The position numbers and the translations under genes are program-made. From Acutalibacteraceae bacterium (lineage in GTDB: Bacteria > Bacillota > Clostridia > Oscillospirales > Acutalibacteraceae), in assembly GCA_045649405.1 (NCBI GenBank), contig JAZRPW010000038.1:13442-77441 (forward strand): a stretch of 64,000 nucleotides of DNA. The letters are read 5' to 3'. The notes below the pieces were generated by a model. It made no database searches. It was not told where the DNA came from and saw nothing but the letters and a program-made list of their open reading frames with translations. Every line of letters starts with the position of its first letter. Position 1 is the first letter of the stretch. This document shows positions 18,873 to 22,628 of the stretch, one piece after another.

Positions 18873-19520
18873 ATGGCAAATTATAAAATTTCAGATTCGG
18901 TAATCAAACGTTTGCCGAGATATTATAGATTTTTAGGCGAGCTTATAAATAACAATGTGCCACGAATTTCTTCTGGCTCGCTTGCAACAAAAATGGGCAT
19001 CACCGCTTCACAAATCAGACAAGATTTAAACTGTTTTGGTGGTTTTGGTCAACAAGGTTATGGTTATAATGTTATTGAGTTGCACAATGAAATTGCCGAG
19101 ATTTTAGGTCTTGATAAAAAGTACAGCGCAATTATCATTGGTGCTGGTAACTTAGGCCGTGCAATTGCAACCCATATGGCTTTTGAAAAACGTGGCTTTA
19201 GTTTGATTGGCGTTTTTGATAAAAAAGAGTCAATTGCAGGGCAACTTATAAAAGGAATGCCTGTGCGCCACATTAGCGGTCTTGATGAGTTTTGCAGAGC
19301 ACACAAACCAACGGTTGCAGTTTTGTGCATTCCGGAAACCGAAACCGAAGACACAGTAAAACAATTGCTTAAATTAGGCGTTCGTGGTTTTTGGAATTTC
19401 TCTCATTACGACTTTAATTTAAAATTCCCAGATGTACCGGTTGAAAACGTGCATTTGAGTGACTCGTTAATGACATTTTGTTACAAAGTAAAAACTCTTG
19501 AGGAAGTAGAAAATCAATAA
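18873..19520 (+). CDS. rex: Redox-sensing transcriptional repressor Rex
   Basis: MANYKISDSVIKRLPRYYRFL winged-helix N-terminus and a GAGNLGRA Rossmann motif. ATG at 18873 follows AAGGAG; the track start at 18822 overlaps paralog 3. Confidence 0.9.
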   Translation: MANYKISDSVIKRLPRYYRFLGELINNNVPRISSGSLATKMGITASQIRQDLNCFGGFGQQGYGYNVIELHNEIAEILGLDKKYSAIIIGAGNLGRAIATHMAFEKRGFSLIGVFDKKESIAGQLIKGMPVRHISGLDEFCRAHKPTVAVLCIPETETEDTVKQLLKLGVRGFWNFSHYDFNLKFPDVPVENVHLSDSLMTFCYKVKTLEEVENQ

Positions 19521-19541
19521 ACTTTTAATCGGAGTGATTTA

Positions 19542-20420
19542 ATGAAAAAAATCAAAAAGTGGATTAACAAAGTCTTTGAAATTTTTTCAAAACTTTCAAA
19601 CCTTTTTATCGACAACCACATTTTTGCTTATGCATCGCAGGCATCGTTTTTTGTAATAATATCAGCAGTGCCGTTTGCAATGCTTTTGCTCAACATTTTG
19701 CAAGCGGTAATGACCATTCCGCAACAAACAGTTGAAAATGTTGTCTTGGAATTTTTGCCGGTTCAGGTTCATCAAATTGCTTATAACATAATTGCTGACT
19801 TTTACAGCAACATCAACATTCCTTTTGTGTCGGTTACAACCATCTTTCTCATTTGGACCGCGTCAAGGGGAGTAAACGCAATTTCATCAGGGCTGAAGGT
19901 TGTTTTTAACACAAATGATGACGGCAACTATTTCAAATCTGCCTTTTTCTCACTTGTTTACACCGTTTTGTTTATTGTTGTAATAATAGCAATGGTTGTT
20001 GCAGTGTTTTTCGGTGGGCATTTGGTAGACCTTTTAGCCATCTACATTCCAGGTCTGCACTCGGTTGTAGATGCTGTGTTGCAAGCAAGATATTTAATTT
20101 TGTTAATAGCGTTAACACTATTCTTTATGAGTGCTTACAAACTTTTGGGCAAATCCAAAATCAAGTTTTTAAACCAATTTTCAGGTGCGTTTTTGTCTAG
20201 TTGTTTTTGGCTCATCTTTTCATATTTTTACTCGGTTTACATTCAAAATATGGGAAGAATGTCTTACATCTACGGCTCGCTTGCAGCAATCGTGTTTTTA
20301 ATGCTTTGGCTGTGGTTCTGTATGATAAGTATGCTTTTAGGCGCACAATTTAATAGGTGGATTTTTGAAAAAAACATCACCTTAAAGTCAATTTTCACAG
20401 GAAAGTTGTCAAAAACATAA
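19542..20420 (+). CDS. YihY/BrkB (virulence factor BrkB / 'RNase BN-like') family membrane protein
   Basis: ~290 aa, six TM helices, and the ..ASQASFF..ISAVPF.. / ..YGSLAAIVFLMLWLW.. pattern typical of the family. Confidence 0.7.
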   Translation: MKKIKKWINKVFEIFSKLSNLFIDNHIFAYASQASFFVIISAVPFAMLLLNILQAVMTIPQQTVENVVLEFLPVQVHQIAYNIIADFYSNINIPFVSVTTIFLIWTASRGVNAISSGLKVVFNTNDDGNYFKSAFFSLVYTVLFIVVIIAMVVAVFFGGHLVDLLAIYIPGLHSVVDAVLQARYLILLIALTLFFMSAYKLLGKSKIKFLNQFSGAFLSSCFWLIFSYFYSVYIQNMGRMSYIYGSLAAIVFLMLWLWFCMISMLLGAQFNRWIFEKNITLKSIFTGKLSKT

Positions 20421-20449
20421 AATTTTAAGAAAAATGTTAAAGATTTTTG

Positions 20450-20478
20450 TTGACATTTTATAAATAATAGGTTATAAT
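20450..20478 (+). promoter_or_regulatory. Perfect consensus sigma-A promoter (TTGACA-17-TATAAT)
   Basis: TTGACA at 20450..20455, a 17-nt spacer, TATAAT at 20473..20478. Confidence 0.8.
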
Positions 20479-20509
20479 ATAGACGAAGAAAGAAATAGGG
20501 GTGATACCG

Positions 20510-20725
20510 ATGGGCGAAGAAAAACAAAGTTTTACTAAAAGCTTGCTGTTAGTGGTTGGCTTTATTGCAACAATTGCAGGCATCGCCGCAGCTGTTTACG
20601 CAGCTATTAAATATTTCGAGAACAAAAAAACTGAAGAATTTATGGATTATTACTTCGATGAAGATGATTATTTAGAAGAAGATGAAATCCCTTATGAACA
20701 ACTCGAAGAGGAAACAGAAGAATAA
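20510..20725 (+). CDS. Small single-pass membrane protein with a poly-acidic C-terminal tail
   Basis: ATG at 20510 follows AGGGGTGA. TM helix LLLVVGFIATIAGIAAAVYAAI, then DYYFDEDDYLEEDEIPYEQLEEETEE. Confidence 0.6.
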   Translation: MGEEKQSFTKSLLLVVGFIATIAGIAAAVYAAIKYFENKKTEEFMDYYFDEDDYLEEDEIPYEQLEEETEE

Positions 20726-20764
20726 TTAATCGGCGACATTTGACTTACCGACTACTAACTAAAC

Positions 20765-21010
20765 CACTTGTGAACTTAATATAAAAAAGGTTGGGATAGT
20801 GATGTACATTTAATTTTTAAAATGTAGGTTGTAAGTTTAAGTATCAAACGAGAGGTTTTAAGCCAATGGAAAATTAAATTTTAATTTCAACAAAATTTAA
20901 GAAAAGGATATTGGTCCAATGAGAAGTTAAGTTTTTTCTTTAAAGTGAATTTTAAAAAAGGAAATAACTCCAATGTATAAATAATTTTTGTTTTCAAACA
21001 TTTTAGACTT
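20765..21010 (+). repeat. Four degenerate tandem repeats (~53-64 nt), each with an SD-like box and a 3-codon mini-ORF ending in TAA
   Basis: Unit consensus: GTRAnyTTAA..AAAAAGG-N9-12-(C)CA-ATG-NNN-NNN-TAA-T-rich. Mini-ORFs: 20802..20813 (MYI), 20866..20877 (MEN), 20919..20930 (MRS), 20973..20984 (MYK). Confidence 0.7.
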
Positions 21011-21020
21011 CTTTAAAATT

Positions 21021-21053
21021 AAAAAAGCAAGGTGAATTTTCACCTTGCTTTTT
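21021..21053. terminator. Bidirectional rho-independent terminator
   Basis: Hairpin gcaaggtg-aatttt-caccttgc flanked by AAAAAA and TTTTT. It lies between the repeat region (+) and the rpiB end (-). Confidence 0.88.
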
Positions 21054-21070
21054 CTTATTTATCAAAAATA

Positions 21071-21514
21071 TTAATATTCGCCGTTTTCAATTTTTTCAAT
21101 TTTGTCAAGTCTGTTTTGGTGTCTGCCACCTTCATATTCTGTGTTCAAGAAAATGTCAACCAATTCAAGCGCAAACAAGTCGCCCAAAACTCTGCCACCA
21201 AGACAAAGAATGTTTGTGTTGTTGTGAAGGCGAGTAAATTTAGTTGAAAAATGGTCAGTACAAACTGCTGCACGAATGCCTTTAACTTTGTTAGCAGCAA
21301 TAGACATACCAATACCAGTACCGCAAACCAAAATTCCTTTTTCTGCTTCTTCACTTGCAACACATTGTGCAACTGGGTAAGCAGTGTCAGGATAGTCAAT
21401 GCTTTTGCCTTCAAAAGTGCCGAAGAACTTGTATTCAATACCTTTTTCATCAAAATCTTTCATAATCTTTACGGCTAATTCATAACCGCCGTGGTCACAA
21501 CCAATTGCAATCAT
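21071..21514 (-). CDS. rpiB: Ribose-5-phosphate isomerase B
   Basis: MIAIGCDHGGYELA.. and GTGIGMSIAANK motifs (RpiB/LacAB family). Confidence 0.92.
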   Translation of the reverse strand: MIAIGCDHGGYELAVKIMKDFDEKGIEYKFFGTFEGKSIDYPDTAYPVAQCVASEEAEKGILVCGTGIGMSIAANKVKGIRAAVCTDHFSTKFTRLHNNTNILCLGGRVLGDLFALELVDIFLNTEYEGGRHQNRLDKIEKIENGEY

Positions 21515-21516
21515 TT

Positions 21517-22206
21517 TTATTTCTCCTTTTTCTTAAGTAATTCTCTGCTTGCTTGCGGAAGTCGCAAATAAACAGGGGTTATTTTCTCGGGGCTTTTTGC
21601 CTCGTTTTTGTACATTTCTGAAAGCAAACAAACACTGTTTGCATGTGGCAACCTAACATCTTCATCTGCAATTGTGCAAGAAATTTCATTAAAATTCTTA
21701 TCGCAAACCGCAGTACCATCGCCACAAAGAATAATCGGTTTATTTAGTGTTTTTAATTCTTTTTCAAGGTCTTCAATAGAAATTGCTCTATCTTCACAAA
21801 GTCTAATTAACTCGCCATTTTTTTCTTCAAAAAGTGCGTTGTAAACCTGGTTGCATCTCGCATCCATAACTGCACAAAAAATGCCATCGTGACGTTCGCT
21901 TGCTGTGTGAGCAATTGTCTCAAGAGTTGAAATGCAAACACAAGGGGTATTAAAAGGTGCTGCCATTCCTTTAACAGTAGCCATTCCAATTCTAAGACCT
22001 GTAAAAGAGCCAGGACCTTTTGTAACAGCAATTAAATCAACCTCTTTAACCGAAAGATTTGCTTCGGTTAAAACTTCATTAATCATTGGCAAAAGTGTTT
22101 GCGAATGTGTAAGTCCGTTGTTGACAATTTTGCCAATTTGCTCATTGCCTTTTAAAACTGCAACCGAACAACTAATGCTTGAAGAATCAATGCCTAAAAT
22201 TATCAT
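21517..22206 (-). CDS. tsaB: tRNA t6A biosynthesis protein TsaB
   Basis: MIILGIDSSS..GPGSFTGLRIG motif. ATGA overlap with the tsaE stop. Confidence 0.9.
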   Translation of the reverse strand: MIILGIDSSSISCSVAVLKGNEQIGKIVNNGLTHSQTLLPMINEVLTEANLSVKEVDLIAVTKGPGSFTGLRIGMATVKGMAAPFNTPCVCISTLETIAHTASERHDGIFCAVMDARCNQVYNALFEEKNGELIRLCEDRAISIEDLEKELKTLNKPIILCGDGTAVCDKNFNEISCTIADEDVRLPHANSVCLLSEMYKNEAKSPEKITPVYLRLPQASRELLKKKEK

Positions 22207-22628
22207 AAATCTAATCCTTCTATTTCAAAAATTCTTGTTGTGTCATCTTCACCCTTTGAAATTGAAATTTTGATAAAGTTTTCAGGAAGCACATTTTCAA
22301 TGTTTTCACTCCACTCACAAACCACAACACCACCCATTTCACAATAAGCGAAAAAGTCGGTTGAATAAAGGTCATCAAAAGTTTCAATTCGGTACATATC
22401 AAAGTGGTAAACATTAAGTCTGCCACCGCTATATTCATTAATAATTGCAAATGTAGGAGAAGAAGCTTCGCCGGTAAAACCTAGCGCTTTTGCAAGGTGG
22501 CGAGTAAAAGTTGTTTTACCCATTCCCATTCCACCAAAAAACGCAATAAAATCATTTGGCTTTAACTTTTCTGCAATTTTATCTGCCAAAAGCGCCGTGT
22601 CTTTTTCAGATTTAGAAATAAATTTCAT
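22203..22628 (-). CDS. tsaE: tRNA t6A biosynthesis ATPase TsaE
   Basis: Walker A-like GGMGMGKTTFTRHLAKALG; ~140 aa. Confidence 0.9.
   Translation of the reverse strand: MKFISKSEKDTALLADKIAEKLKPNDFIAFFGGMGMGKTTFTRHLAKALGFTGEASSPTFAIINEYSGGRLNVYHFDMYRIETFDDLYSTDFFAYCEMGGVVVCEWSENIENVLPENFIKISISKGEDDTTRIFEIEGLDL

Follow-up and report, generated by a model that had tools for sequence, protein, structure and literature searches.

In a 64,000-nt stretch of contig JAZRPW010000038.1 from an Acutalibacteraceae bacterium (the window; positions are counted from its first letter), the spacer downstream of a gene for a small membrane protein carries an array of four miniature translation units at 20784..20984. 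Each unit is composed of a Shine-Dalgarno sequence (SD), 9-11 nt, an ATG, two sense codons and a stop codon. The same layout follows the orthologous gene in related genomes, and the units share a distinctive CC just ahead of the ATG with the start site of that gene. We interpret the element as a possible array of translated minigenes in the 3' untranslated region (3' UTR), which imitate the start site of the gene and would act as a sink for ribosomes or for a start-site factor, a reading that we place just short of an even chance.

All four units lie on the plus strand. The first (U1, 20784..20813) consists of an A-rich tract, the SD AAAGG (20786-90), GGGATAGTG, ATG (20802) TAC ATT and TAA (20811-13). 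In U2 (20850..20877), the SD GAGAGG (20850-55; duplex energy -7.7 kcal/mol) is followed by 7 nt, CCA, ATG (20866) GAA AAT and TAA (20875-77). U3 (20902..20930) comprises the SD AAAAGGA (20902-08; -7.2 kcal/mol), again 7 nt and CCA, then ATG (20919) AGA AGT and TAA (20928-30), and U4 (20954..20984) an A-tract, the SD AAGGA (20958-62; -6.2 kcal/mol), 7 nt, CCA, ATG (20973) TAT AAA and TAA (20982-84). Successive ATGs are 64, 53 and 54 nt apart. These coordinates, sequences and periods had been given in an earlier reading of the stretch from its letters alone (the sequence-only reading) and were borne out on re-reading the DNA; the (C)CA that it described before each ATG is present in U2, U3 and U4, while U1 has GTG at -3..-1. 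A repeat search of the window grouped U2-U4 as one repeat family with 71-79% identity over 28 nt. Tandem Repeats Finder did not call the array in the window, and the element is thus an array of motifs and not a sequence repeat. Shuffling, a check that had been set beforehand in the sequence-only reading, excludes a chance origin: in 2000 dinucleotide-preserving shuffles of the 296-nt region, the number of units averaged 0.11 and never exceeded 2, compared to the four observed. When a site is defined more generically, as an SD duplex of -5.5 kcal/mol or lower and an ATG with a stop after no more than four sense codons, 26 SD-ATG-stop sites occur in the 64-kb window with both strands pooled (128 kb), and the array is the sole cluster of three or more such sites within 300 nt. 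After U1, the window also contains a local hairpin (UACAUUU / AAAUGUA; 20805-20827) that other species do not have, and an ATG TAG start-stop without an SD (20822-27) that is not retained in other species.

The array was found at around 18 orthologous loci, no two of them identical, in Acutalibacteraceae and related metagenome-assembled genomes (MAGs), with 3-5 units per locus, so that the SD/ATG/stop layout recurs in relatives, where the sequence-only reading had proposed to look for it. The loci counted are the window and, by the labels given to orthologous loci from related MAGs, L001-L007, the L013-group, L023/24, L025, L028, L029, L031, L034, L036, L037 and L040/41. A set of 55 non-redundant units (15 first units and 40 non-first units) was scored, in which every purine tract has its GG by definition of the unit. 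The ATG is present in 55/55 units. CC occupies -3/-2 in 40/40 non-first units, with A as the next base in 35, G in four, C in one and T in none. An in-frame stop follows after one or two sense codons in 54/55 units and after three in the remaining one; against these 97-100% in frame, the same test applied to the +1 and +2 frames finds a stop in 20% and 3% of the non-first units (n = 40) and in 0% and 13% of the first units (n = 15). Most stops are TAA (n = 48), next to TAG (n = 4) and TGA (n = 3), and orthologous units show changes from TAA to TGA (L025 U3, L028 U2) as well as from TAA to TAG. Including the ATG, the mini open reading frame (ORF) measures two codons in 17 units, three in 37 and four in one, the differences being whole codons only. 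The fixed ORF length of the sequence-only reading therefore applies within the window, where all four units have two sense codons, but not in the relatives, where lengths of 2, 3 and 4 codons occur, and one of 10. This last case is the second unit of the L013/L014/L015 group (~115 after the gene stop), in which a 1-nt shift places the usual TAA out of frame; its ORF reads ATG TGC AAA TTA AAT TTT ATT AAA GAA ATT TAG, with the SD 13 nt from the ATG, and it was kept out of the 55-unit set.

U1 is the most conserved unit. Its consensus over 15 non-redundant copies is AAtATAAAAAAGGatGGGATaGTG ATG TAc nnn TAA, the second codon encodes Tyr in 13/15 copies (TAC in 10, TAT in 3), and the stop lies exactly two sense codons past the ATG in 15/15. 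Over all 55 units, the second codon is biased towards Tyr (n = 24, both TAC and TAT), AGA (n = 18) and AAC (n = 6), while the third codon is unconstrained and the peptide length variable. Among close relatives, 0/24 columns vary at -3..-1 and the ATG, 2/12 among the stop columns and 51% among the spacer columns, and the one clear substitution in a stop column (TAA to TGA in L025 U3) retains a stop. ATG-to-ATG spacing in the relatives has a minimum of 48 nt, is mostly 50-70 nt and extends up to ~105 nt; a 126-nt gap in one scan reflects a skipped unit. Frame-specific stops, stop turnover, length changes by whole codons and SDs of gene grade (see below) together point to selection through translation. 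On these patterns, selection on start/stop geometry and not on a peptide, as the sequence-only reading had suggested, appears strongly supported.

SD strength was calculated as the pairing of -20..-4 with the 16S tail CACCUCCUUUCU, which we assume from general knowledge of Firmicutes and did not take from this genome. With this assumed tail, the SD duplexes of the units have a mean energy of -6.85 kcal/mol and 82% are at or below -6. For comparison, the mean is -2.2 for random ATGs in the window, 7% of which reach -6 or lower, and -7.8 for 54 long ORFs taken at their best-SD starts (76%). The distance from GG to ATG is 8-13 nt and that from GG to CC 5-10 nt. The purine element occurs in varying anti-SD registers (AAGGA, GAGGU, AAGGU, GGAG, GGGGU), and such sliding indicates SD-like behaviour, unlike a fixed protein motif such as the GGA of CsrA. 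Anatomically, each unit is a minigene: it has an SD at a functional distance from an AUG, at most about seven sense codons and an in-frame stop. No conserved RNA structure accompanies this anatomy. RNAalifold on 12 sequences of U1 with its upstream block yields 0 consensus pairs, and the single-sequence fold of the plus strand, terminator included, has z = -1.9. The better z of the minus-strand fold (-3.2) is owed mainly to the terminator that both strands share, and the minus strand is located past this convergent terminator. A search with Rfam 15 gave nothing below E = 1 in 19500-22500, and neither the entire window nor six orthologous loci contain a match that reaches the gathering score. 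A mini-hairpin between SD and CC was also considered and set aside as too weak, as the third GGN/N'CC pair is found in only 24/40 units (permutation P ~0.01, uncorrected for shared ancestry).

The gene in front of the array (20510..20725, plus strand; ATG at 20510, stop at 20723-25) encodes a protein of 71 amino acids with one N-terminal transmembrane helix and an acidic, aromatic-rich tail. A Pfam search of the protein returned sub-threshold matches only, and no Pfam family is assigned. The tail carries the motif KKTEEFMDYYFDEDD, which is kept in the orthologues, and an imperfect 18-nt tandem repeat (GATGATTACTTAGAAGAA, 2.3 copies) lies at 20645-20685 within the region coding for it. The translation-initiation region of the gene (20497..20512, plus strand) reads AGGGG-tgata-CCg-ATG (AGGGGtgataCCgATG) and presents the same SD-spacer-CC[A/G]ATG signature as the units. 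In all array-bearing orthologues examined, the start site consists of GGAG or GGGG (GAGG is also seen), 6-8 nt ending in GAUA, and CC[A/G]AUG. The GAUA at -7..-4 is common to U1 and the small-gene start site. CC at -3/-2 is present in the small gene and in 0/49 of the other SD-led long ORFs of the window. As this signature is common to the units and the small-gene start and absent from the 49 other genes, the array units are copies or mimics of the initiation region of the small gene. In the more distant homologues, which have no array, positions -3..-1 read CAT, CAA or ATT instead of CC; CC signature and array thus co-occur across orthologues. A start-type codon in the same frame invariably stands exactly three codons 5' of the small-gene ATG (GTG, TTG or ATG, then AT[A/T] or ACT, then CC[A/G] and the ATG); in the window, it is GTG at 20501. 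The small protein might begin with M-I-P-M, though the SD would then be too near, and the conserved GAUACC may have a coding role, a regulatory one or both. A candidate anti-CCAAUG element in the small gene was rejected: the codon preceding the suspected GUUGGC at the Gly-Phe codons varies, and no CATTGG or CATCGG occurs in any orthologue.

The small gene has a sigma-A-type consensus promoter, TTGACA-17-TATAAT, at 20450..20478 (plus strand), which matches in 12/12 positions. It also scores 12/12 in L003 and L031 and 11/12 in L005, and its sequence is conserved across the aligned orthologues. The promoter is the probable start of the array-carrying transcript. As this promoter appears to be very strong and the hosts are uncultured gut Clostridia, the transcript may be abundant in gut metatranscriptomes. 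A terminator scan found none between the small gene and the array, and the single one is an intrinsic terminator at 21022..21053 with a 14-bp stem, an A-tract on the 5' side and a T-tract on the 3' side. The promoter at 20450 and the single downstream terminator, both named in the sequence-only reading, were thus recovered by the scans. The terminator, which is predicted to act in both directions, can end the array transcript and, in this genome, that of the convergent rpiB. A terminator hairpin also follows every orthologous array. In L001 and L025, the stop of the last unit lies just 6 nt ahead of the A-tract arm of the terminator, where a terminating ribosome would overlap the hairpin; the corresponding gap is 37 nt in the window, so this closeness is not conserved. 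At the predicted 5' end of the transcript, 4-6 nt past the TATAAT, five loci (L001, L002, L025, L031 and L034) have a tiny ORF, ATG ACC TAA or ATG AAC TAA, which is absent from the window, where ACG stands at its position.

Between the small-gene stop and U1 lies a conserved, unstructured block (20740..20783, plus strand) of the form ..TTGACTTACCGACTACTAAC-TAAACC-N9-10-CTTAAYAT, which can also be written as ACGACTnTTAAC-TAAACC-N9-10-CTTAAYAT. TAAACC and CTTAAYATAAAAAAGG are invariant or almost so in 12 sequences, and the block is conserved to the same degree as the units. Candidate roles are those of a weak internal promoter, a processing site and a binding site. The promoter and the conserved block were also inspected by eye for a Rex operator, an idea that was dismissed because the half-site matches were poor.

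Relatives of the small protein occur in Acutalibacteraceae and Ruminococcaceae MAGs. The gene order of Rex (a redox-sensing repressor), a YihY/BrkB-family membrane protein and the small gene with its transmembrane helix and acidic tail is strictly conserved in the array-bearing loci (18873-20725 in the window). Wherever the small gene follows Rex and YihY/BrkB, the array is found 3' of the gene and is followed by an intrinsic terminator. In L013 and L014, an aconitase gene lies directly upstream of Rex. The gene beyond the terminator varies (rpiB, Zip transporter, Met gamma-lyase, Big_2 protein, acyl-ACP thioesterase or VanW) and is in most cases encoded on the other strand. It is thus the small gene, and not rpiB, that the array accompanies from locus to locus, and the linkage to rpiB that the sequence-only reading had assumed is incidental. 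The array is absent from more distant homologues, namely the GC-rich L008-L012 and L038, the latter with a different synteny. The U1 pattern had 0 matches in the JGI metagenomes and 0 in IMG/VR, and a small-protein profile had 0 confirmed matches in the JGI metagenomes. A two-unit pattern gave at least 120 matches in IMG/VR, of which all those inspected were chance matches and none was array-like. As far as seen, the element is confined to one gut-associated clade.

Based on these observations, we infer that the array is co-transcribed with the small gene and translated, and that it would park ribosomes and compete with the gene. The ~300 nt after the small gene would be the 3' part of its mRNA, running from the consensus promoter to the sole terminator. 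This tail would carry four (3-5 in relatives) independent, unstructured initiation regions, each a minigene, with the atypical start site of the gene (SD, about 8-11 nt, CC[A/G]AUG) as the template. Ribosomes would initiate on each unit and yield only fMet-X or fMet-X-X (fMet, formylmethionine), the mini-ORF being presumably too short for the ribosome to break its SD contact. When E. coli minigenes are shortened from eight to two codons, termination slows down, while peptidyl-tRNA drop-off and re-initiation without leaving the mRNA increase, and it is their short length that lies behind this behaviour (PMC2490762). If the same applies here, one ribosome would be parked per unit, and a unit spacing of at least 48 nt would leave room for one ribosome each. 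The array would then be a cis-linked decoy in a fixed ratio to the small-gene message that competes with the gene start site for ribosomes or for a factor reading CC-AUG. As an outcome, synthesis of the small protein would be tuned and the AU-rich tail incidentally covered. Ribosome occupancy of natural minigenes is known to protect AU-rich mRNAs in the case of LEE4 and axe-txe (PMC8708949).

Several points weigh against such a sink. The invariant CC before the ATG is unaccounted for by the known contacts between ribosome and mRNA; it points to an extra recognition partner, and we know of no initiation rule that accounts for CC at -3/-2. An ATG in every unit exceeds the uniformity of ordinary start-codon usage, and the 1-nt shift in the second unit of the L013-group leaves a 10-codon ORF. 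The reading does not account for why a cell would maintain a ribosome sink on this particular mRNA, nor does the 3' location offer an obvious way to protect or regulate the upstream ORF. Finally, as the element is limited to one clade, common descent links many of the 55 units, which do not count as independent observations.

The best-surviving alternative is that the array is a decoy for an RNA-binding protein or small RNA (sRNA) that reads the SD and CC[A/G]AUG of the small gene, in which case the stops would merely abort unavoidable translation. The CC signature occurs only in the gene start site and the units, it is phylogenetically coupled to the array, ATG and CC vary less than the needs of the ribosome alone would explain, and repeated motifs followed by a terminator are also the format of CsrB/RsmZ-type sponges. 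Yet, the two half-sites are 5-10 nt apart at a variable distance, which is typical of the ribosome and uncommon in recognition by a protein or antisense RNA, and the purine element slides in the anti-SD register (AAGGA, GAGGU, GGAG, GGGGU) without a single motif. Control of wasteful translation does not need a stop within one or two sense codons either, as seen in 54/55 units; by chance, an ORF would run for ~12 codons, as estimated from base composition. A scan of the mRNA also gave no candidate factor or complementary sequence. Overall, we consider a decoy of this kind rather unlikely, though a serious candidate. The sponge proposed in the sequence-only reading divides along the same line: a ribosome sink is compatible with the data, whereas a CsrA-type sponge is not. 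The base after GG is A in 30, U in eight and G in two of 40 units (thus GGU or GGG in 10/40), the gene start has GGAG, GGGG or GAGG, and there are no conserved hairpins.

Another explanation is that the products matter, either as formyl di- and tripeptides (fMet-Tyr-X, fMet-Arg-X) or through the loading of tRNA-Tyr and tRNA-Arg(UCU) as peptidyl-tRNA, with a bar-like modulation of tRNA pools or sensing of Pth as the purpose. It would account for the bias of the second codon towards Tyr, AGA and AAC, and ATG AGA TAA units look much like the minigenes with AGA by which tRNA is sequestered in E. coli (PMC2490762). Neither the third codon nor the peptide length is conserved, however, and single arrays mix several second codons. 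As the normal Arg codon of AT-rich genomes, AGA should not be a hungry codon in this case. Toxicity of the bar type requires limiting Pth, and the shared CC signature is left without an explanation. A role for the products is therefore clearly improbable.

We regard as very unlikely that the array is a structured or processed sRNA or a DNA element (protein sites, phased A-tracts or internal promoters) with the SD-ATG-stop pattern as a by-product. In its favour, U1 and the block before it are highly conserved in primary sequence, and the third-pair complementarity between GGN and N'CC mentioned above is slightly enriched. In some orthologues, a weak TTAACT-16-TAATAT lies right before U1; this candidate internal promoter was read by eye from the alignment, is sub-threshold in the window, was scanned with inconsistent results and was rejected. 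On the other hand, the absence of RNAalifold consensus pairs, the unremarkable fold z-score and the lack of an Rfam match do not suggest a structured RNA, and the minus strand is beyond the convergent terminator. Helical phasing was likewise rejected, as the 53-54 nt of the window come close to five helical turns but relatives space their units by 48 to ~105 nt. Frame-specific stops with length changes by whole codons would not be expected for an sRNA or DNA element. Least credible of all is that the units are neutral relics, pseudo-start-sites from old duplications of the 5' end of the gene that decay in an AT-rich spacer: the units do look like the start site of the gene, as the decaying duplicated leader of the sequence-only reading implied, and their number varies from three to five, but they are maintained, with cores that are invariant across lineages whose small proteins are ~50-90% identical while ~51% of spacer columns vary among close relatives, stops retained through TAA-to-TGA and TAA-to-TAG changes, and an array kept despite many downstream rearrangements.

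Minigenes have hitherto been a phage curiosity (bar), laboratory tools or single mini-ORFs in 5' leaders. The array could represent an undescribed class of cis-element, i.e., a conserved chromosomal 3'-UTR tandem array of translated 2-3-codon minigenes that mimic the start of the upstream gene and trap ribosomes, peptidyl-tRNA or a start-site factor through recognition of CC at -3/-2; we hold this broader proposal tentatively, at somewhat under even probability. If true, bacteria would deliberately retain non-productive translation sites, and the array would offer a natural system for ribosome behaviour on ORFs that are too short to break SD contact. It would also bear on the recruitment of ribosomes by Firmicute 3' UTRs for regulation, and on what reads CC just ahead of a start codon. 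The claim of the sequence-only reading that no equivalent has been described is upheld in that neither Rfam nor the literature search gave a match; the latter returned only single 5'-leader minigenes and bar, and no tandem or 3'-located minigene arrays.

Among known systems, CsrB and RsmZ resemble the array in their purine-rich, SD-like motifs every tens of nt, their intrinsic terminator and titration by start-site mimicry. CsrA sponges contain many A(N)GGA motifs, mostly in short hairpin loops, a pattern that the array does not show: GGA is not invariant here and does not lie in conserved hairpin loops, whereas an ATG with a frame-specific stop would be needless for a CsrA sponge. Firmicute mRNA stabilisers (the Stab-SD of cryIIIA, the ermC leader and the 5' SD of hbs) similarly have a strong SD over an otherwise untranslated stretch. 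A strong SD of the Stab-SD type is described to hold a ribosome or 30S subunit and to alter the fate of the mRNA (PMC5737220). These stabilisers sit on the 5' side, where they counteract 5'-to-3' decay by RNase J1, and an array at the 3' end cannot protect the ORF ahead of it in this manner. The ToxI RNA of type III toxin-antitoxin systems shares the format of tandem short units ending in a terminator. ToxI repeats are near-identical, measure ~36 nt (34-36) and precede an endoribonuclease toxin gene, while the array is not called by Tandem Repeats Finder, its units share motifs only and are spaced by 48 to ~105 nt, and no toxin gene follows it.

More closely related in anatomy are the minigenes of 5' leaders. 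The dipeptide ORFs of B. subtilis ycbK are reportedly regulatory minigenes of this sort. Others are the two-codon LEE1 and six-codon LEE4 minigenes of enterohaemorrhagic E. coli (EHEC) and the two-codon minigene of axe-txe, all of them SD-led mini-ORFs of 2-6 codons. In these leaders, translation and not the peptide acts in cis on the stability of the mRNA or on a neighbouring ORF (PMC8708949). Leader minigenes are nonetheless single or paired and located upstream of the gene that they regulate on the same transcript, a position also taken by the erm, cat and ABC-F leaders, with distance and frame being of importance, whereas the array lies between the only ORF and the terminator, with no downstream gene on the transcript.

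The closest likeness is to barI and barII of phage lambda and to synthetic minigenes of 2-8 codons, with which the units share an SD, an AUG, one or two sense codons, a UAA and an A/U-rich context. The bar elements of lambda occur singly on an early transcript of the phage, and their effect is visible only under limiting Pth. To our knowledge, no natural role has been established for them. The ATG AGA TAA units in particular closely resemble AGA-containing laboratory minigenes of E. coli (PMC2490762). Of the hypotheses in the sequence-only reading, a lambda bar-like minigene array has the best-fitting anatomy, though the 3' position and the array form are without precedent. Unlike lambda bar, the present element is chromosomal, occurs in 3-5 tandem copies, is conserved in many lineages, and lies 3' of a cellular gene with which it shares its CC signature.

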